A DNA stretch of 29,228 nucleotides. Source: Thermoleophilaceae bacterium. Lineage in GTDB: Bacteria > Actinomycetota > Thermoleophilia > Solirubrobacterales > Thermoleophilaceae. The stretch is taken from contig JACCUE010000051.1 of assembly GCA_013812005.1 (NCBI GenBank), forward strand, positions 1 to 29,228, read 5' to 3'. Both the position numbers and the translations under genes were made by a program. How positions within the stretch are numbered: position 1 is the stretch's first letter; every line of letters starts with the position of its first letter. A model generated the notes under the pieces. The model made no database searches. It saw nothing but the letters and a program-made list of their open reading frames with translations, and was not told the DNA's origin. Shown here piece after piece: positions 4,640 through 14,814 of this stretch.

Positions 4640-5718
4640 AGGTGGGGATCCTCGGGCTGCCCAACGCGGGCAAGTCTTCGCTGTTCAACGCGCTCACGCG
4701 TGCGGGGGCCCAGGCCGCCAACTACCCATTCACCACCGTGGAGCCCAACGTGGCGATTGTGAGCGTGCCCGACGAGCGGCTCGACCGGGTGGTCGAGACC
4801 GTGAGGGCTACACCCACCGTGTACGAGACAATGGAGTTCCACGACATCGCGGGGCTCGTCCGCGGCGCGCACAAGGGCGAGGGCCTGGGAAACCGCTTCC
4901 TGGCGAACATCCGCGAGACCGACGCCCTCGTGCACGTGGTGCGAGCGCATTCGGACGCCCAGGTCGTGCATCCCGAGGGCCGGGTCGACCCCCTGGCCGA
5001 CGTGGACACGGTGGAGACCGAGCTGCTCTACGCCGACCTCGAGCAGGCCGAGCGGCGCCTGGAGAAGGTCAGGCGCGAGGCCAAGTCTCTCGACAGGGCC
5101 AAGATGGCCGAGGAGGCGTGGCTGCGCGAACTGGTGGCCGCCCTCGGCGAGGGCCGGCCCGCGCGCTCTGTCGGAGTGCCCGAGGCCGCCGCCGGCGCGC
5201 TTGGCAACCTGCAGCCGCTCACCGCCAAGCCCGTGCTGTATCTGGCCAACGTGGGCGAGGGCGATCCGCTGGAGGTCCCACCGGCCCTGGCGCAGCACGC
5301 AGAGGCGGCGGGAGCGAGGTCTGCGGCGGTGTCGGCACGGATCGAGGCCGAGCTGTCCGAGCTCGACGCCGAGGAGGCCACCGGGATGCGCGCCGAGCTG
5401 GGCGCCGGGGAGTCCGGGCTGGCCACCGTGATCCGCGAGGCGTGGCAGCTGCTTGGCCTGATCTCCTTCTTCACCGCCGGCGAGGGCAAGGAGGGCCGCG
5501 CGTGGGCGATCCCCCGCGGCACGCCCGCCCGCCGCGCGGCCGGTGAGATCCACACCGACATCGAGCGCGGCTTCGTGGCCGCGGAGGTGGTCGGCTGGGA
5601 GGACCTGGTGGCCGCCGGCGGCTATACCGAGGCCCGCGAGCGCGCGAAGCTGAGGGTGGAGGGCCGCGGCTACGAGGTGCGCGACGGCGACGTGATCACG
5701 GTGCGCTTCACGCCCTGA
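4636..5718 (+). CDS. ychF: Redox-regulated ATPase YchF (Obg family)
   Basis: GILGLPNAGKS, NYPFTT, DIAGLV, G4 variant NVGE and TGS-domain IHTDIERGF. Start GTG at 4636 overlaps the PAP2 stop. Confidence 0.95.
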   Translation: MKVGILGLPNAGKSSLFNALTRAGAQAANYPFTTVEPNVAIVSVPDERLDRVVETVRATPTVYETMEFHDIAGLVRGAHKGEGLGNRFLANIRETDALVHVVRAHSDAQVVHPEGRVDPLADVDTVETELLYADLEQAERRLEKVRREAKSLDRAKMAEEAWLRELVAALGEGRPARSVGVPEAAAGALGNLQPLTAKPVLYLANVGEGDPLEVPPALAQHAEAAGARSAAVSARIEAELSELDAEEATGMRAELGAGESGLATVIREAWQLLGLISFFTAGEGKEGRAWAIPRGTPARRAAGEIHTDIERGFVAAEVVGWEDLVAAGGYTEARERAKLRVEGRGYEVRDGDVITVRFTP

Positions 5719-5723
5719 GGTCG

Positions 5724-7070
5724 CTAGCGCACGCGCACGGCGGGGCCGGCCACCGAGCCCACTCGCACGCGGTAGACCCCGGTGATTCCGACGGTGGTCC
5801 GGTAGCGCCCCTTGCGCGAGGTCCGGATCCGGCTCACACGCGCCCAGGTGTTCCCGCTGCGACGTTCGACCAGCACCCGCCTCGAGCGCGGCGCGGGCGC
5901 GAAGACCCCGGCGATCTCGGGGAAGCTTCCGCGGGCGTCACGAGCGCCGCGGGCGCGCTGGGCGACCTGAGAGGTCGAGACCTTCCGGAAGAATGCCCAG
6001 CTGTCGTACAGGTCCAGCCGCGCTCGGATGTCCGCGCCGCTCAGCATGCGCGAGCCACGCGAGCCGACGACCCGCGCGCGCACGATGCGTGGTGAGTTGC
6101 CGCGCCGCAGCACGTCGACGCGCCGGAGGGTGCCGGGCGCGCCCAGGCGAGCGCCCAGCTCGGAGCGCGAGAATCGAAACTGCCAGCGGTGGCGGGGGGA
6201 GATGTCGTCGTAGGGGTCGCGCACGCTCTCGAGGTAGGGCTGTGGCTGCGCGCCCAGAAAGGACAGCTCCACGTTCTCCGTGCGCCCGCCCGAGGTCGAG
6301 AAGTAGAAGGTCGTGACGGGGTCGCCGTCGTAGGTGAGCACTTGGCGGGCGGTGTCGGCCACGGCCTTGTTGGTGCGCGATGTCTCCGCCGAGACGCCGG
6401 CGTAGACCTGCGATCGGGTGTCCGGGTAGAGGTCGAACACCTGCCCGCGCTGGCGAGTGGCCAGCGCGTAGGTGCGCGCCGCCACGGCTTGGGCGCGCAG
6501 GGCGTCGTAGTCCCAGCTCGAGGGCATCTCACCGGGTACCACGCCCCCGAGGTAGGTGTCGATCGGCAGCGAGTTGATCGCCGTGACCCCTCCGATGGCG
6601 CCGGGGCGCAGCACCATCGCGCCGCGGTAGGTGCCCGAGTCGATCCCGTTGATCGCCGGGCCCATCAGCCTGATCGGCCGGTTCCCGGTCACCGAGATCG
6701 GGCCGCTGAAGGTGCCGGCGCCGGAGACCCGCAGGCGCCCACCGCCGGCCGGTCGAACGATGTGCAGACCGCGGCTGATCCTCTTGCCCCCCACGCGGGT
6801 GGCTCCGCTGAAGCGCACGTAGGGATCGCTGGCCTGCAGCAGCACCCGCACGGGGCGACTCGGCGCGCGGCCGATCTGGGTGCCCTTGTAGTAGTGCTTG
6901 AGGATCCGCACGTAGCCCACGCCGTTCTGGGCGAAGCCGTAGGCGCCGTACTGGCTCATGCCGATGCCGTGGCCGAAGCCCGCGCCACTGACCACGTGAC
7001 GGGTGGCGGCGCCGGCCGGAGGGGCGGCGAGCAGGGCGAGCAGTGCTGTGAGCAGGACGACGCGGCGCAT
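5724..7070 (-). CDS. Secreted SpoIID/LytB-domain lytic transglycosylase-like protein
   Basis: Signal peptide MRRVVLLTALLALLAAPPAGA, GFGHGIGMSQYGA, YLGGVVPGEMPSSW, ALRAQAVAARTYA, DTRSQVY, FYFSTSGGRT. Confidence 0.88.
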   Translation of the reverse strand: MRRVVLLTALLALLAAPPAGAATRHVVSGAGFGHGIGMSQYGAYGFAQNGVGYVRILKHYYKGTQIGRAPSRPVRVLLQASDPYVRFSGATRVGGKRISRGLHIVRPAGGGRLRVSGAGTFSGPISVTGNRPIRLMGPAINGIDSGTYRGAMVLRPGAIGGVTAINSLPIDTYLGGVVPGEMPSSWDYDALRAQAVAARTYALATRQRGQVFDLYPDTRSQVYAGVSAETSRTNKAVADTARQVLTYDGDPVTTFYFSTSGGRTENVELSFLGAQPQPYLESVRDPYDDISPRHRWQFRFSRSELGARLGAPGTLRRVDVLRRGNSPRIVRARVVGSRGSRMLSGADIRARLDLYDSWAFFRKVSTSQVAQRARGARDARGSFPEIAGVFAPAPRSRRVLVERRSGNTWARVSRIRTSRKGRYRTTVGITGVYRVRVGSVAGPAVRVR

Positions 7071-7258: not shown

Positions 7259-8581
7259 TTACTCCACCGCGTACAGCCGCCATTCGCCGGGCACGCCCCT
7301 GAGCTCATGGGTGCCGCGCTCCTCGAAGTCGATGCCCGAGCCCACCACGAGGTCCTTCACCGTGCTCGACACGAGCACCTCGCCCGGGCCGGCGCAGCCC
7401 ATCACCCGGGCGCCGATGTGCACCGCCATGCCGCCCACGTCGTCGCCGATCACCTCGCACTCCCCGGTGTGCAGGCCGGCCCGGATGTCGATCCCCAGCC
7501 GCCGCACCTGCTCGCCGATCGTGGTGGCGGCGCGGATGGCCCGAGCGGGCCCGTCGAAGGTGGCCAGCACGCCGTCGCCGGTGGACTTGATCGCGCGCCC
7601 TCGGTGACGGGCCACCTCGCGCTCGACGACGCGGTCGTGGCGCTTCAGGACCTCGCGCCAGGCGCTGTCGCCCAGCGATGCGGCGCGCTCGGTGGAGCCG
7701 CAGATGTCGGTGAACAGAACGGTGGCAAGCACACGGTCGGGCTCGGGCTCGTGGCGCGCTCCGGTCAGGAACTCCTCGACCTCGCCGAGCACGGACTCCG
7801 AGTCGCCGGCCGAGAAGAGGCTGTCGGTGCCCTCCAGCTCCACGTACCGCGCGCCGGGAATGTGCTCGGCCAGATAGCGCGAGTGCTCGACCCTCATGAA
7901 CGAGTCCTCGCGGCGGTGCAGGATCAGGGTGGGTACCCGGATCGAGGACAGCACGTGGCGCACGTCGGTCTCCCCGACCGACTCCATCATCGTGCGGATG
8001 GTGCCGGGGCTGGCCGAGTAGCGCTCCATCCGCCCCGCCCACTCGGCGAAGGCGGGATCACCGGCTTTGCCGGGCGCAAGGGCGAGCGCCACCCCACCCT
8101 GGCCCCACTGTGCGACGAGGGCCTCGATGCGCGCATCGCGGTCCTCGTCGACCGGTGCCCAGTCGTAGTCGGGCGCCCAGCGCGAGCGCGAGAAGGTGGA
8201 GTACAGGATCAGGGAGCTCACCCGGTCGGGATGGGTGGCGGCGAACAGCATCGCAAGCGGACCTCCCTCCAGCGACGCCATCACCGCGGCCCGCTCGGTG
8301 TGAGTGGCGTCCATCACCGCCAGCACGTCGTCCATCTGCTCCTCCAGGGTGGGCACGCCCAGCCATGGGTCCGACAGCCCGGCTCCGCGCCTGTCGAAGG
8401 AGATCAACCTCGCGTAGGCGCAGACGCGCTGAAGGAAGGCCTCCACGGACGGCTCCTCGACCATCACCTCGATCTGTCCGATCCACGAGGGGATGTACAC
8501 GAGGCTGGTGTCGCCCTCACCCACCGCCTGGTAGGCGATGTGGAGGTCACCGCTCTTCGTGTACCGGGTCGGCGCGCCCAC
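7259..8581 (-). CDS. Alpha/beta-hydrolase fold + class III adenylate/guanylate cyclase fusion (LipJ/Rv1900c-like architecture)
   Basis: N-terminal HIAYQ...FDRRGAGLSD hydrolase fold; C-terminal LFTDICGST, IKSTGDG, GLHTGECE, GMAVHIGARV. Start GTG at 8581 lies 7 nt after minus-strand TAGCCT. Confidence 0.9.
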   Translation of the reverse strand: MGAPTRYTKSGDLHIAYQAVGEGDTSLVYIPSWIGQIEVMVEEPSVEAFLQRVCAYARLISFDRRGAGLSDPWLGVPTLEEQMDDVLAVMDATHTERAAVMASLEGGPLAMLFAATHPDRVSSLILYSTFSRSRWAPDYDWAPVDEDRDARIEALVAQWGQGGVALALAPGKAGDPAFAEWAGRMERYSASPGTIRTMMESVGETDVRHVLSSIRVPTLILHRREDSFMRVEHSRYLAEHIPGARYVELEGTDSLFSAGDSESVLGEVEEFLTGARHEPEPDRVLATVLFTDICGSTERAASLGDSAWREVLKRHDRVVEREVARHRGRAIKSTGDGVLATFDGPARAIRAATTIGEQVRRLGIDIRAGLHTGECEVIGDDVGGMAVHIGARVMGCAGPGEVLVSSTVKDLVVGSGIDFEERGTHELRGVPGEWRLYAVE

Positions 8582-8588
8582 GAAAAAG

Positions 8589-8614
8589 AGGCTACTCGGC
8601 ACCCCCGGTAGCCT
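8589..8614. promoter_or_regulatory. Back-to-back leaderless promoters: TAGCCT on each strand, 7 nt before each start codon
   Basis: Plus TAGCCT at 8609-8614, ATG 8622. Minus TAGCCT (plus AGGCTA 8589-8594), GTG 8581. The intergenic gap is 40 bp. Confidence 0.7.
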
Positions 8615-8621
8615 CCGGTCG

Positions 8622-10265
8622 ATGCCCAAGCGCCGCGCGTCCGACGTGTTCGTGGAGTGCCTCGAGGCCGAGGGCGTCAGTCACGTGTTCGGGATCCCGG
8701 GAGAGGAGACCCTAGACCTCAACGAGTCCCTCGCCGAGTCCTCGATCGACTTCGTGCCCGTGCGCCAGGAGCAGGGCGGCGCTTACATGGCCGACACCTA
8801 CGGGCGGCTCACCGGCCACGCGGGGGTCTGCCTCGGCACCCTGGGTCCCGGAGCGCTCAACCTCGTGACCGCCGTAGCCGACGCCTACCTCGACCGGTCG
8901 CCGCTGGTGGCCCTCACGGGCCAGGGCGACCTCGAGCGGATGCACAAGGAGTCGCATCAGTACATCGACGTCGTGCGCGTGATGCGCCCGATCACCAAGT
9001 GGAACGCCCGCGTCAACGACCCGCACATCATCCCCGAGGTGGTGCGCAAGGCCTTCAAGGTGGCGGAGGCCGAGAAGCCGGGCGCCACCCACATCGAGCT
9101 GCCCGAGGACGTGATGGCCCAGGAGCTCGACGCGTCACCGCTGCCGCGACGCAAGACCGCGCCCTCCGAGCCTCAGGCGCGTGAGCTGCTCAAAGCCGCC
9201 GACGTGATCCGGGGCGCGCTGAACCCGGTCGCCCTGGCCGGCAACGGCGTGATCCGAGGCGGCGCCACCCCGGCGCTGCGCGAGTTCGTGCGCGCCACCG
9301 GCATCCCCGTGGCGGAGACCTTCATGGGCAAGGGCCTGCTCGGACCTGACAACCCGAAGGCGCTGGGCAACGTCGGCCTGCAGGCGGGCGACTACTCGAT
9401 GGCGGGCTTCGAGGACGCCGACGTGGTGCTGGCCATCGGCTACGACCTGGTCGAGCAGTCGCCACAGATGTGGAACCCCGGCCGCGACAAGACGATCGTC
9501 TGCATCGACTCGCTGCCCGCCGAGACCGACGAGCACTTCATCCCCGAGGTCGAGCTGGTCGGCGACATCTACCACACGCTCACCCGCCTGGCGGAGGAGT
9601 GCCGGCACGTGCCCCACGGGGGCGGATCGCAGCGCCTGCGCGACGTCGTGCTGGGGCGATTCGAGGCCGCCAAGGACGACGACCACTTCCCCGTCCAGCC
9701 CCCTCGCGCACTTTGGGAGATTCGCAAGGCGCTCGGGCGCGAGGACATCCTCGTGTCAGACGTGGGGCTGCACAAGCTGTGGATCGGGCGGATGTTTCCC
9801 GCGTATGAGCCCAACACCGTGCTGATCGCCAACGGCCTGGCGGGGATGGGGTTCGCGCTGCCCGCGGGCATCGCCGCCAAGCTGGTGCACCCCGACCGCA
9901 ACGTGGTCACGGTGAGCGGCGACGGCGGCTTCTTGATGAATGCACAGGAGCTCGAGACCGCGATGCGGCTGCGGACCCCGGTCGTGAACGTGATCTGGGA
10001 GAACGGCCAGTACGGGTCGATCGTATGGAAGCAAGACAAGAAGTTCGGCCGCCATTTCGGAACCGACTTCACCAACCCGGACTTCGTCAAGCTCGCCGAG
10101 AGCTTCGGCATGCCGGCCTGGCGCTGCGACTCGGCCGGCGACTTCGGCGCGCGGCTGCGCCACGCCTTCGGACTCGACGTGCCGTCGGTGATCGTGCTGC
10201 CGATCGACTACTCGATCGACGTCGCGATCTCCGAGGAGCTGGGCGCCGAGACGGTCGCCACCTAA
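8622..10265 (+). CDS. ThDP-dependent acetolactate-synthase-like enzyme, probably of the 2-oxoglutarate decarboxylase (OgdA-like) clade
   Basis: FGIPGEE, RQEQ, TLGPG, RMHKESHQY, EKPGATHIELPE, GYDLVE, SDVGLHKLW, ThDP motif GDGGF...ENGQYG, WKQ, NPDFV. Start ATG 8622. Confidence 0.85.
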   Translation: MPKRRASDVFVECLEAEGVSHVFGIPGEETLDLNESLAESSIDFVPVRQEQGGAYMADTYGRLTGHAGVCLGTLGPGALNLVTAVADAYLDRSPLVALTGQGDLERMHKESHQYIDVVRVMRPITKWNARVNDPHIIPEVVRKAFKVAEAEKPGATHIELPEDVMAQELDASPLPRRKTAPSEPQARELLKAADVIRGALNPVALAGNGVIRGGATPALREFVRATGIPVAETFMGKGLLGPDNPKALGNVGLQAGDYSMAGFEDADVVLAIGYDLVEQSPQMWNPGRDKTIVCIDSLPAETDEHFIPEVELVGDIYHTLTRLAEECRHVPHGGGSQRLRDVVLGRFEAAKDDDHFPVQPPRALWEIRKALGREDILVSDVGLHKLWIGRMFPAYEPNTVLIANGLAGMGFALPAGIAAKLVHPDRNVVTVSGDGGFLMNAQELETAMRLRTPVVNVIWENGQYGSIVWKQDKKFGRHFGTDFTNPDFVKLAESFGMPAWRCDSAGDFGARLRHAFGLDVPSVIVLPIDYSIDVAISEELGAETVAT

Positions 10266-10277
10266 CGAGAGGAAGTC

Positions 10278-11747
10278 ATGGCGTTGGCAACCGAGGAGCA
10301 GCAGATCGTCGACGAGGTCCCCAAGGGCCTCCTGATCGGGGGAGAGTGGCGAGACGCGGCCGAGGGCGCGACGCTCGCCGTGCTCGACCCGGCCACCGGC
10401 GAGGCCATCTGCGAGGTGGCGGACGGCACCCCCGGCGACGCCATGGCAGCGCTGGGCGCAGCGCACTCCAAGCAGGCCGAATGGGCCGCCACGCCCCCCA
10501 ACGAGCGCGGCGAGATCCTCTGGCGCGCCTTCGAAAAGCTCACCGAGCGTGCAGACGACCTGGCCCTGCTGATGACGCTCGAGATGGGCAAGCCGGTGGC
10601 CGAGTCGAAGGCCGAGATCTCCTACGCGGCGGAGTTCTTTCGCTGGTTCTCCGGCGAAGCCCTCCGCATCGACGGCCAGTACAAGGTCGCGGGCAACGGC
10701 GCGAGCCGGGTCATGACCCTGCGCCAGCCGGTCGGGCCGAGCCTGATGATCACGCCGTGGAACTTCCCGACGGCGATGGGCACCCGCAAGATCGGGCCGG
10801 CGGTCGCGGCCGGATGCACCATGGTGATCAAGCCCGCGCAGCAGACGCCGCTCTCGATGCTGATGCTGGCCAAGCTGCTGGAGGAATGTGGGCTTCCCGG
10901 CGGGGTGCTCAACGTGATCACCGCTTCCTCGTCGGGCTCCACCATGGGGCCGCTGATCGAGGACCCGCGGGCCCGCAAGCTGTCCTTCACCGGCTCCACG
11001 GAGGTGGGACGGAAGCTGATCGCCCAGTCCGCCGAGCAGGTGCTCAAGGTGTCGATGGAGCTGGGCGGCAACGCGCCCTTCGTGGTGTTCGACGACGCGG
11101 ACCTCGACGAAGCGGTCGAGGGCGCCCTGATGGCGAAGATGCGCAACATCGGCGAGGCGTGCACGTCGGCCAACCGCTTCCACGTCGCCGCCTCGGTGGC
11201 CGACAAGTTCGCGCAGAAGCTGGCCGCGCGAATGGGGGCGATGAAGATCGGGCGCGGCACCGAGGACGGCGTGGAGGTGGGGCCGCTGATCAACGCAGAC
11301 CAGCGCTCGATGGTCGCCGAGTTGGTGGATGACGCCGTCGAGAGAGGGGCGAAGGCGCTCTGCGGCGGCAAGAGCATCGACGGCCCCGGCTTCTTCTACG
11401 AGCCCACGGTGCTTGGCGGTGTGACCCCCGACGCCCGGGTCCTCAAGGAGGAGATCTTCGGCCCCGTGGCCCCCGTGATCGGCTTCGACTCCGAGGAGGA
11501 CGCGATCGCCGCCGCCAACGACACCGAGTACGGCCTGGTCGCGTACCTCTACACCCGCGACCTCAAGCGTGCCCTGCGGGTGATCGAGGGCCTTCAGACC
11601 GGCATGGTCGGCCTCAACCAGGGGATGGTCTCCAATGCGGGAGCCCCGTTCGGCGGCGTCAAGCAGTCGGGCGTGGGTCGCGAGGGTGGCGACGAGGGCA
11701 TCGACGAGTACCTCGAGACGAAGTACGTGGCGATCAACCTCGGATAG
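10278..11747 (+). CDS. gabD: NAD(P)-dependent succinate-semialdehyde dehydrogenase
   Basis: ITPWNFP, KPAQQTP, FTGSTEVG, catalytic MELGGNAP and GEACTSAN, EEIFGP, PFGGVKQSG.GREG. SD-like GAGAGGA upstream; 12 bp after the ThDP gene. Confidence 0.88.
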   Translation: MALATEEQQIVDEVPKGLLIGGEWRDAAEGATLAVLDPATGEAICEVADGTPGDAMAALGAAHSKQAEWAATPPNERGEILWRAFEKLTERADDLALLMTLEMGKPVAESKAEISYAAEFFRWFSGEALRIDGQYKVAGNGASRVMTLRQPVGPSLMITPWNFPTAMGTRKIGPAVAAGCTMVIKPAQQTPLSMLMLAKLLEECGLPGGVLNVITASSSGSTMGPLIEDPRARKLSFTGSTEVGRKLIAQSAEQVLKVSMELGGNAPFVVFDDADLDEAVEGALMAKMRNIGEACTSANRFHVAASVADKFAQKLAARMGAMKIGRGTEDGVEVGPLINADQRSMVAELVDDAVERGAKALCGGKSIDGPGFFYEPTVLGGVTPDARVLKEEIFGPVAPVIGFDSEEDAIAAANDTEYGLVAYLYTRDLKRALRVIEGLQTGMVGLNQGMVSNAGAPFGGVKQSGVGREGGDEGIDEYLETKYVAINLG

Positions 11748-11758
11748 CGCAGGCGCGA

Positions 11759-12013
11759 CTAGCCCACTCGCAGCCGCCGTGCGAGCCCGGACCGCCGCCG
11801 GCGGTCGCGGTGGCGCACGGTGTCGCCGATCAGCCAGAACATGGGTGGCCACAGGCCCACGAAGAGGGCGCGGCGCTCGGCGTTCGCCCGCTCGTCCTCC
11901 CCGATCGTCTTCGCCCGGATCCATAGCCCGATGCAGAGCGCGATCGTGCTCAGCGACGTCGCGTACAGGTAGCGGTGAGGTGGGCCGGGGACGGCGTGCA
12001 GCAGGTCGGGCAC
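11759..12013 (-). CDS. Small two-TM membrane protein (84 aa)
   Basis: Hydrophobic segments YLYATSLSTIALCIGLWI and ALFVGLWPPMFWLIG. GTG at 12013 lies 6 nt after CAAGCT; the ORF-track start at 12139 overlaps the divergent gene. Confidence 0.7.
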   Translation of the reverse strand: MPDLLHAVPGPPHRYLYATSLSTIALCIGLWIRAKTIGEDERANAERRALFVGLWPPMFWLIGDTVRHRDRRRRSGLARRLRVG

Positions 12014-12065
12014 AGCCTCAGCTTGACGGATTCGTTTCGCCGCGGTCTGGCGGTGGTAAGACTGC

Positions 12066-13448
12066 GTGGTGCCGCGCAGACAGACCACCGGGTTACGGTT
12101 GCGCACCGCCGCGCGCTTTCCGCTCGGCCTCGGGCTCACGGCCTGGCGCTACATGTGGCGCACGACGCCCGTGCATCGCTGGGAGCTCGCCGGCTCCCCG
12201 GACACCGACCGGCCGCCGGATCTACCTGACGACTTCGAGCTCGACGAGCTCCAGCGCACGGACGACGGCGTCGGCCCCCTGATCCACCGGATCTACCGGA
12301 CGCGGATCGCAGGTTCCTCGCTCACGCCCGAGCAGCTCGTCGAGCGCATCGCCGCCGACCTCGACGGCGTGGCGCCCTCGGAGTTCGCAACCTTCCAGAA
12401 GCTGGGCGGCGGCGAAGGGCTGGCGCCGAATGACGAATACGTGGTCCGCATGCCGGGGCCCTATGACGGCCCGGTACGGGTGGTTTCGGTGAGCCCGACG
12501 TCTTTTCGGCTCGCCACCCTCGAGGGCCACCTCGAGGCGGGGCAGATCGAGTTCCGCGCCGACGCCGATCACCGCTCGCTCGGTTTCACGATCGAGTCGT
12601 GGGCGCGCAGCGGCGACCGGTTCAGCGACCTCCTGTATTCGCGCCTGCGCCTGGCGAAGGAGGTCCAATTGCACATGTGGACGTCGGTGCTCGCGCGCGT
12701 GGTGGAGCTCGCCGGAGGGCGCATGGACGGCGGCATCGTGATCACGACGCGGCGAGTCGACGTCGACCGGCTCGGCGACGCGCCGCCACCCCGGCGCACG
12801 CGAAGCGACGACCGCAGGCTCGCCGCGCTGGCGCGACTGCCGGTCAACTTCGACGCCGACCGGGCGGGCACCTACACGCCGGAGAACGGCTGGCACGTCG
12901 ACGACATGGTCGAGGCCCTGCCGAACGAGGCCTCAGGCCCACCGGTAGACGGCGGAAGCTGGCAGGTCGCCCGCCGGCTGATGCTCGACTACCAGCTCGC
13001 CGACCCGGCGGTCGTCCGCGCCGTGTACCGCGGGGACGTGCCGCTGCCCGGTCGCGACATGCTGTTGAAGATCAGCTTCCTGGGGCTGCGGATCCACGTG
13101 GGCGTCCGGGTCGGCGAAGTGTACGAGGACACCTGCGAAGTCGACGGGCGCCCCGTGCAGATCTTCGGATGGAGCTATCAGACGCTCGAGGGGCACTTCG
13201 AACAGGGCCAGATGAGCTATGAGGTGTGGAAGTGGACCGACACGGGCGATGTCGCCTTCCGGACGCACGCATATTCCAGACGCGCGGAGCACGGTCCGCG
13301 TCTGCTGCTTCTGGGGTTTCGCGTCTTCGGCCGCATCGAGCAGCTGCGCTTCTACCGCGCGGCCTGCCGGCGCGCCCGCCGGTTGACCGAGACCGAGCTC
13401 GAGAGCGCGCGGGTGATGACGCTCACGGAACCGGCGGGGGGTGATTAG
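12066..13448 (+). CDS. Protein with two tandem DUF1990-like domains
   Basis: Repeated motif ATLEGHLEAGQIEF (first half) and QTLEGHFEQGQMSY (second half), typical of DUF1990/UPF0548 proteins as recalled. Confidence 0.7.
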   Translation: MVPRRQTTGLRLRTAARFPLGLGLTAWRYMWRTTPVHRWELAGSPDTDRPPDLPDDFELDELQRTDDGVGPLIHRIYRTRIAGSSLTPEQLVERIAADLDGVAPSEFATFQKLGGGEGLAPNDEYVVRMPGPYDGPVRVVSVSPTSFRLATLEGHLEAGQIEFRADADHRSLGFTIESWARSGDRFSDLLYSRLRLAKEVQLHMWTSVLARVVELAGGRMDGGIVITTRRVDVDRLGDAPPPRRTRSDDRRLAALARLPVNFDADRAGTYTPENGWHVDDMVEALPNEASGPPVDGGSWQVARRLMLDYQLADPAVVRAVYRGDVPLPGRDMLLKISFLGLRIHVGVRVGEVYEDTCEVDGRPVQIFGWSYQTLEGHFEQGQMSYEVWKWTDTGDVAFRTHAYSRRAEHGPRLLLLGFRVFGRIEQLRFYRAACRRARRLTETELESARVMTLTEPAGGD

Positions 13449-13452
13449 GCAG

Positions 13453-14775
13453 TCAGGCCTGAGAGCCCCGCGCCATCTTGTGTAGGTCCAGCGCCTCGTC
13501 GAGGGTCGCCTCGGCCACGCCCTTCTCGATGGCCACCTCCCTGATGGTGCGCCGTGAGGCCACCGCCTCCTTCACGATCTCCGTGGCGCGGTCGTATCCG
13601 ATGTGGGGGTTGAGCGCGGTGGCGATCGCGGGGGTCGACTCGGCGTGGCGGCGCAGCTCGGCCTCGTTGGCCTGCAGTCCGTCCACGCACTTCTCCGCGA
13701 GCAGGGTGGAAGCGCTCGAGAGGATCGTGATCGAGTCGAGCAGGTTGCGGGCGATCACAGGAACCCGCACGTTGAGCTCGAAGTTGCCCTGCGTACCGGC
13801 GATGGTGATCGCGGCGTCGTTGCCGATCACCTGGGCGGCCACCTGAAGCACCACCTCGGGGATCACCGGGTTCACCTTGCCGGGCATGATCGAGGAGCCC
13901 TTCTGAAGCTCGGGCAGCGACACCTCGCCAAGCCCCGTGCGCGGGCCCGAGCCCATCAGCACCAGGTCGTTGGCGATCTTGGTGAGTGACACCGCCACAA
14001 CCTTCAGCGCCCCCGACAGCTCCACGAGCGCGTCGCGGTTGCCCTGGGCCTCGAACGGGTCGGCCGGCCCTTCGACCGCGATGGCGGCGCTCTCGGCCAG
14101 GCGCGAGCGCACCCCGGCGGCGAAGTCGGGATGAGTGTTGAGACCGGTGCCGGTGGCCGTGCCTCCCAGTGGGATCTGAGACGCGCGCGCAAGTGCGTCG
14201 CTCACCCGCGCATGCGCGAGGCGCGACTGCGCGGCGTAGCCGGCGAACTCCTGCCCGAGCGTGACGGGCACAGCGTCCATCATGTGGGTGCGGCCCGCCT
14301 TGACCACGTCGACGAACTCGCCGGCCTTGGCCTCGAACGAAGCTGCGAGCCTCTCGAGTGCCGGGAGCAGCCGCTCGGTGGCCTCCGACACGGCGGCCAG
14401 GTGCACCGCCGACGGGAACACGTCGTTGGAGGACTGGCCCATGTTCACGTGGTCGTTGGGATGGGCGCCTTCTCCGGCCAGGTTGGCGATCACCTCGTTG
14501 GCGTTCATGTTCGACGAGGTGCCGGATCCGGTCTGGAAGACATCGATGGGGAACTGGCCGTCGTGTAAGCCCTCGGCCACCTCGTCGCCCGCGATCGCGA
14601 TCCGTTCGGCCAGCTCGGCGTCGAGCAGTCCGAGCGCGGCGTTGGTCCGCGCCGCGGCGGCCTTCACGGCGCCGAGCATCCGCACCACGGCGACAGGCAC
14701 GCGCTCGCCCGAGACGGGGAAGTTGTCCACCGCCTTGCCGGTCTCCGATCCCCACAGCTGCTGCTCGGCCGCCAT
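13453..14775 (-). CDS. fumC: Class II fumarate hydratase (fumarase/aspartase superfamily)
   Basis: FQTGSGTSSNMNANEV, HPNDHVNMGQSSND, GRTHMMDAVP, signature GSSIMPGKVNP. SD AAGGAG upstream of ATG 14775. Confidence 0.9.
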   Translation of the reverse strand: MAAEQQLWGSETGKAVDNFPVSGERVPVAVVRMLGAVKAAAARTNAALGLLDAELAERIAIAGDEVAEGLHDGQFPIDVFQTGSGTSSNMNANEVIANLAGEGAHPNDHVNMGQSSNDVFPSAVHLAAVSEATERLLPALERLAASFEAKAGEFVDVVKAGRTHMMDAVPVTLGQEFAGYAAQSRLAHARVSDALARASQIPLGGTATGTGLNTHPDFAAGVRSRLAESAAIAVEGPADPFEAQGNRDALVELSGALKVVAVSLTKIANDLVLMGSGPRTGLGEVSLPELQKGSSIMPGKVNPVIPEVVLQVAAQVIGNDAAITIAGTQGNFELNVRVPVIARNLLDSITILSSASTLLAEKCVDGLQANEAELRRHAESTPAIATALNPHIGYDRATEIVKEAVASRRTIREVAIEKGVAEATLDEALDLHKMARGSQA

Positions 14776-14814
14776 CTGTCTCCTTTGCGCGTCTGGGCCA
14801 GGCAAGCTACCGGC

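Follow-up and report, generated by a model that had tools for sequence, protein, structure and literature searches.

Gene arrangement at the locus

The stretch of DNA analysed here, referred to as the window, comprises 29,228 nucleotides from a Thermoleophilaceae bacterium (GenBank assembly GCA_013812005.1, contig JACCUE010000051.1, designated C331) and belongs to an assembly of 1.6 Mb in 350 contigs that is ~65% complete. It contains a gene for a thiamine diphosphate (ThDP)-dependent enzyme, publicly labelled 'acetolactate synthase large subunit', followed by a gene for a GabD-type aldehyde dehydrogenase (Table 1). An earlier note on this DNA had read the two genes as a cyanobacterial-type pair of 2-oxoglutarate decarboxylase (OgdA, also named KGD) and succinate-semialdehyde dehydrogenase (SSADH) that may close the tricarboxylic acid (TCA) cycle. 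Our analysis supports the OgdA/KGD family for the ThDP enzyme and points to a bypass beside an existing route.

The ThDP enzyme is encoded within an open frame spanning 8538-10265 on the plus strand, and its product, if started at the ATG at 8622, has the 547-aa length shared by almost all of its relatives. Its nearest named proteins come from Thermoleophilaceae metagenome-assembled genomes. The gene ends with a TAA codon at 10263-10265 and the ATG of the dehydrogenase gene lies at 10278; the 12-bp gap given in the earlier note was read directly from the sequence. A sequence scan found no terminator-like sites between the two genes, which are probably co-transcribed. A sigma-70 consensus scan of 8200-13600 returned no promoter and one terminator-like site, which is at chance level. 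Within 8609-8622, a TANNNT-like hexamer (TAGCCT) ends 7 nt 5' of the ThDP ATG and a Shine-Dalgarno sequence is absent; the ThDP transcript may be leaderless. The locus was present in DNA runs of soil and sand metagenomes that belong to 13 studies, with no RNA run among those listed.

Table 1 Features at and around the ThDP enzyme and dehydrogenase genes, in window coordinates.
Feature	Position	Strand	Basis or remark
Alpha/beta-hydrolase and adenylate/guanylate cyclase domain protein, divergent	7259-8629	-	Pfam Abhydrolase_1, Guanylate_cyc
OgdA-like ThDP-dependent 2-oxoacid decarboxylase (predicted), 547 aa	8622-10265	+	Pfam TPP_enzyme_N, M, C
Intergenic spacer, 12 nt, Shine-Dalgarno-like GAGAGGAAG	10266-10277	+	Read from sequence
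GabD-type succinate-semialdehyde dehydrogenase (predicted), 489 aa	10278-11747	+	Pfam Aldedh
460-aa open reading frame, DUF1990 domain in C-terminal part only	12066-13448	+	Between gabD and fumC
fumC, class II fumarase, convergent	13453-14805	-	Pfam Lyase_1, FumaraseC_C

Family assignment of the ThDP enzyme

The earlier note had called the ThDP enzyme OgdA-type rather than IlvB on the basis of short motifs, all of which were found in the translation (GIPGEE, RMHKESHQY, EKPGATHIELPE, GYDLVE, SDVGLHKLW, NTVLIANG, WKQ and NPDFV) and agree with the consensus of the family alignment. The call was supported by the family score, the tree and the predicted substrate-binding residues. The enzyme scored 683 bits with NF006187/PRK08322 (cut-off 509; not discriminating on its own, see below), whereas its scores stayed under the cut-offs of the AlsS models (473 bits, cut-off 510, and 429 bits) and of the IlvB model TIGR00118 (360 bits, cut-off 538). 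The closest solved structures were AlsS enzymes at ~340-382 bits (9ZGL, 382 bits; 4RJJ, 357 bits), and the comparison with the PDB returned no solved structure within the enzyme's own group.

Loci of the family were collected by a scan of one genome per species, which gave 80 loci, 20 of them cyanobacterial. The ThDP enzyme shares 47-50% identity over its full length with the 20 cyanobacterial proteins. In six of these, all 17 residues named for the Microcystis KGD (MaKGD) occur at identical numbering (PMC10418658), and therefore these six are orthologues of the Microcystis enzyme. The characterised members of the family, all cyanobacterial, are reported to be specific for 2-oxoglutarate (PMC10418658).

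Two trees were built with IlvB as outgroup, a quick one under LG+G4 (58 rows) and a careful one under LG+C20 with posterior mean site frequencies (PMSF; 46 rows). AlsS formed a separate clade on a long branch with 100/100 support. The OgdA-like group, which contains the cyanobacterial OgdA proteins and the window protein, was separated from AlsS under LG+G4 with Shimodaira-Hasegawa approximate likelihood ratio test (SH-aLRT) values of 98-99. Within this group the window protein fell inside a Solirubrobacterales clade supported at 100/100. In the PMSF tree the cyanobacterial clade is not the sister of this clade and joins sequences from gammaproteobacteria, Poribacteria and spirochaetes. The phylogeny proposed in the earlier note as a check thus placed the ThDP protein with neither IlvB nor AlsS, the deep branching being moderately resolved. 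Together, the sequence comparisons support placing the enzyme in the family of cyanobacterial OgdA/KGD, outside the AlsS and IlvB clades.

Predicted active site

Residues were compared in MaKGD numbering, with 28 sequences of the window clade and 7 of AlsS in the alignment. Gln254, Lys386 and Lys471 are the predicted polar contacts of 2-oxoglutarate in MaKGD, and Leu467 is a predicted hydrophobic contact (PMC10418658). In the window clade, Lys is found at both 386 and 471 in all 28 sequences and Gln at 254 in 26 of 28. The corresponding residues are Tyr, Gln or His (386), Gln or Glu (471) and Phe, Trp or Lys (254) in AlsS; IlvB has Gln or His at 386 and Phe or Trp at 471, and varies at 254. 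Position 408 is Ala in the window clade, Gln in 7/7 AlsS sequences and Gly or Ala in IlvB. Five of the six predicted, docking-derived 2-oxoglutarate contacts (Gln254, Lys386, Lys471, Val382, Ala408 and Leu467) are kept, and Leu467 is replaced by Ser. The cofactor and catalytic residues Glu50, the GDG...N/D motif, Met410, Tyr465 and His385 are retained.

The partner dehydrogenase

The best NCBIfam models of the dehydrogenase were those for SSADH, TIGR01780 at 560 bits and PRK11241 at 553 bits, each under its equivalog cut-off. Its best PDB match was E. coli GabD (3JZ4, 513 bits), and the top nine PDB matches were all SSADHs. GabD residues Asn156, Glu254 and Cys288, which are catalytic according to GabD and ALDH5A1 structures, and Arg164, Arg282 and Ser445, which bind the substrate carboxylate, were aligned and identical in the dehydrogenase. 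Identity to the dehydrogenase that accompanies cyanobacterial OgdA was 33-35%; the latter enzyme has PRK09406 as its best match and is encoded upstream of OgdA. Judged by these comparisons, the partner is an SSADH of the E. coli GabD type and not of the cyanobacterial SsaD type. The cyanobacterial-type pair described in the earlier note therefore holds for the ThDP family and for an SSADH-like partner, but not for the type of the partner or for the gene order, which is reversed.

Gene context in relatives

The gene order ychF, spoIID (minus strand), ThDP gene (plus), an optional aldehyde dehydrogenase gene (plus), fumC (minus), marR, ileS is conserved across several families of Solirubrobacterales, which indicates that the ThDP gene is old and has been inherited vertically at this site. 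The earlier note had pointed to fumC 1.7 kb downstream of gabD. That distance is correct, but fumC lies on the opposite strand beyond the DUF1990 gene and, because the order is conserved throughout Solirubrobacterales, its proximity reflects synteny rather than an operon. In most relatives gabD or the ThDP gene is directly convergent with fumC, versus the interposed DUF1990 reading frame in the window.

The ThDP gene and gabD occur together in the window and in seven other genomes of the genus that were examined, either adjacent or 0.8-3.7 kb apart. Several relatives carry an extra gene between the two, with gaps of 0.8-1.1 kb (G002, G003, G011, G014, L074 and L085); the extra gene of L031 (5687-6628, minus strand) is AbiEi-antitoxin-like and lies opposite in strand to both neighbours. 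A 1262-aa reading frame upstream of the ThDP gene in L031 was considered as Kgd and rejected, since it encodes a PAS-GGDEF-EAL signalling protein. In L112, from a genome that lacks the ThDP gene (G019), the gabD match at 5452-6895 is in two pieces and may be broken.

Across the 80 family loci, an aldehyde dehydrogenase gene lies beside the ThDP family gene at 36, in many phyla and with varying subfamily and order, and such a repeated association favours a decarboxylase that releases an aldehyde. Apparent fusions of the two genes in G322 and G226 were rejected, as they showed an open frame upstream only. In a genome of a sister family (G029), the position flanked by the ThDP gene and fumC is taken by another aldehyde dehydrogenase (37% identical) that best matches a model for lactaldehyde dehydrogenase.

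The hydrolase-cyclase gene occupies the same divergent position in G014 and G019. A metagenomic relative of the ThDP enzyme, P0124 (677 aa, 52% identical), carries a C-terminal cyclic-nucleotide-binding domain at residues 540-677. The cyclase neighbour and the fused domain possibly reflect a link to regulation by cyclic nucleotide monophosphates (cNMP), or a coincidence.

TCA cycle genes and distribution

The earlier note had suggested closure of the TCA cycle and had asked whether the genome encodes SucA/Kgd or KorAB. The C-terminal half of SucA/Kgd was found at a contig edge (C88) of the same genome. Among congeners, SucA matches were found in 23 of 24 and SucC in all 24. The ThDP gene scored over cut-off in 12 of the 25 genus genomes and was missing from five that are 90-98% complete. 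The near-universal presence of SucA and SucC beside a ThDP gene in 12/25 genomes argues for an accessory bypass, not for closure of an open cycle, and this part of the earlier note was not supported. Two families (f5 and f6) are without SucA and have KorA-type oxidoreductases and SucC. In G014, G016, G017 and G023, which are few-contig assemblies, the SucA matches are broken up into two to four neighbouring frames, either through long-read frameshift errors or as real pseudogenes.

A phylum-wide sample of 301 genomes, including the source genome (G000), contained a member of the ThDP family in 24; the members examined from other actinobacterial families fall in other subclades. As the earlier note had stated, ilvN and ilvC are not near the ThDP gene: the sole ilvN of the assembly lies on C70 beside the true IlvB gene (814 bits with TIGR00118), away from the ThDP locus, and the ~65%-complete assembly yielded no ilvC. 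Genes for an acetolactate decarboxylase-like protein above the TIGR01252 cut-off were seen in two congeners without an OgdA-like gene (G008:C30:29605-30228 and G010:C21:34412-35035), in both cases within ~1 kb of sucA/kgd.

Interpretation and alternatives

The observed family membership, residue conservation, gene linkage and distribution are the ground on which we infer the substrate, product and physiological role of the pair. The reading that we favour, with moderate confidence, is that the two genes encode a coenzyme A (CoA)-independent bypass from 2-oxoglutarate to succinate. In this scheme, non-oxidative decarboxylation of 2-oxoglutarate by the ThDP enzyme would give succinic semialdehyde, and oxidation of this aldehyde by the GabD-type dehydrogenase, with NAD(P)+, would yield succinate. 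The bypass would run parallel to the SucA/Kgd and SucCD route without replacing it and would be dispensable; it appears to have been inherited vertically in Solirubrobacterales at the conserved chromosomal site by fumC. This would be a known pathway in a new host and not a new pathway.

Several observations weigh against this bypass. B. subtilis passes the NF006187 cut-off as well, presumably via AlsS, its only known close homologue, so that the NF006187 score alone is not discriminating. Monophyly of the OgdA-like group relative to AlsS reached just 89/40 under the LG+C20 PMSF mixture model. Identity of the ThDP enzyme to characterised-type enzymes is <50%, and two cyanobacterial KGDs that are >80% identical differ ~500-fold in activity (PMC10418658). 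The substrate contacts of MaKGD themselves derive from docking into an AlphaFold model and not from a solved complex (PMC10418658). The dehydrogenase stayed under both equivalog cut-offs (646 for TIGR01780, 828 for PRK11241). The two genes are also separable: the ThDP gene stands without an adjacent gabD in families f3 and f5 and in several Solirubrobacterales, and gabD is kept without the ThDP gene in G010, G015 and G019, and therefore GabD has another substrate source. The pocket, finally, carries two changes, A384L and L467S, that are fixed in 28/28 window-clade sequences, and D462N and E469V are likewise fixed. The D462N variant of MaKGD retained 19% of wild-type activity (PMC10418658).

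These four replacements, and the report that Leu467 is among the MaKGD residues that contact 2-oxoglutarate (PMC10418658), also speak for an enzyme acting on another 2-oxoacid that bears an acidic or polar group at its far end, such as 2-oxoadipate, which would yield glutarate semialdehyde for oxidation by a GabD/DavD-like dehydrogenase in a catabolic module. The partner dehydrogenase varies by lineage (the lactaldehyde dehydrogenase-like gene of G029), and conversion of 2-oxoglutarate is already covered by SucA and SucCD. GabD-type enzymes accept glutarate semialdehyde too. However, both Lys and the Gln, which are predicted to bind the carboxylate of 2-oxoglutarate, are strictly conserved, the flanks consist of housekeeping genes with no lysine or aromatic catabolic genes nearby, and the 2-oxoglutarate specificity reported for the characterised members (PMC10418658) points the other way; we regard this alternative as unlikely. 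A further reading is somewhat less likely still: because the pocket is remodelled (A384L, L467S and D462N) and the slot is filled by different aldehyde dehydrogenases, the Solirubrobacterales clade might be no 2-oxoglutarate decarboxylase but a 2-oxoacid decarboxylase with a new substrate, and because a divergent cyclase gene lies upstream and a 52%-identical relative has a fused cNMP-binding domain, it might be under cyclic-nucleotide control.

The independent occurrence of the ThDP gene and gabD in relatives, with a GabD-like gene elsewhere in genomes that carry the ThDP gene alone at the locus, would fit production of succinic semialdehyde for another end, such as gamma-aminobutyrate (GABA) or 4-hydroxybutyrate, with GabD mainly detoxifying surplus aldehyde. 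This seems very unlikely to us, as the 12-nt coupling to gabD points to aldehyde oxidation as the main fate, the ~65%-complete assembly gave no GabT above cut-off, and no 4-hydroxybutyrate dehydrogenase gene was found at the locus. Equally improbable, or slightly more so, is that the public annotation is right and the protein is an FAD-independent, catabolic-type acetolactate synthase or another carboligase with gabD as a coincidental neighbour. AlsS enzymes are its closest solved structures, and the AlsS and OgdA-like groups are sisters with weakly resolved branching; yet the AlsS model scores under their cut-offs, the split of the AlsS clade with 100/100 support, the Ala in place of the AlsS Gln at 408 and the Lys residues at 386 and 471 all speak against it. 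So do the biosynthetic IlvB and IlvN encoded elsewhere, the recurrence of the aldehyde dehydrogenase pairing across phyla, and the lack of co-occurrence of alsD with the ThDP gene (alsD was found in 4 of 41 relatives, 3 of them without the ThDP gene).

The CoA-independent bypass would matter in several respects. The family assignment corrects a systematic mis-annotation, as the acetolactate synthase large subunit, in common soil actinobacteria. It suggests that Thermoleophilia may have, alongside the Kgd route, a path from 2-oxoglutarate to succinate that needs neither CoA nor lipoate. This is relevant to metabolic models of uncultured soil Thermoleophilia and to the long-standing question of succinic semialdehyde formation from 2-oxoglutarate in actinobacteria.

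Comparison with known systems

Homologues of OgdA beyond cyanobacteria have been mentioned before, for example in Sphaerochaeta (PMC3372971). Our literature search found no report of an OgdA-type module for Thermoleophilia; for actinobacterial OgdA-type enzymes it returned Kgd-type work in Frankia only, and for mycobacterial IlvG (Rv1820) as a characterised relative it returned nothing usable.

AlsS (B. subtilis, 4RJJ; K. pneumoniae, 1OZF) resembles the window enzyme in its three-domain fold, its length and the absence of a small subunit. The window enzyme differs in scoring below the AlsS cut-offs, in its active-site residues, in its distinct clade and in having no alsD partner. Kgd/OdhA of the M. 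tuberculosis Rv1248c type uses 2-oxoglutarate, the substrate predicted for the window enzyme, and was in the past suggested to supply GabD1/GabD2 via succinic semialdehyde (PMC10418658); it is an unrelated, much larger E1o-type protein, and it coexists here with the ThDP enzyme (the C88 fragment).

The closest systems are the cyanobacterial OgdA/KGD and SsaD pairs of Synechococcus sp. PCC 7002 (A2770/A2771), Synechocystis (Sll1981) and Microcystis (MAE_06010). The window enzyme shares with them the NF006187 family, the cofactor residues and the Gln, Lys and Lys predicted to bind 2-oxoglutarate, and, as in the cyanobacterial bypass, its gene has an aldehyde dehydrogenase gene as immediate neighbour in the same orientation. 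In contrast, the window clade is separate and its pocket carries A384L, L467S and D462N; the partner is GabD-type (PRK11241/TIGR01780) and encoded downstream, whereas the cyanobacterial partner is SsaD-type (PRK09406) and encoded upstream. The window host also has SucA/Kgd and SucCD, and the route would, unlike the cyanobacterial bypass, be unneeded for closure of the cycle.

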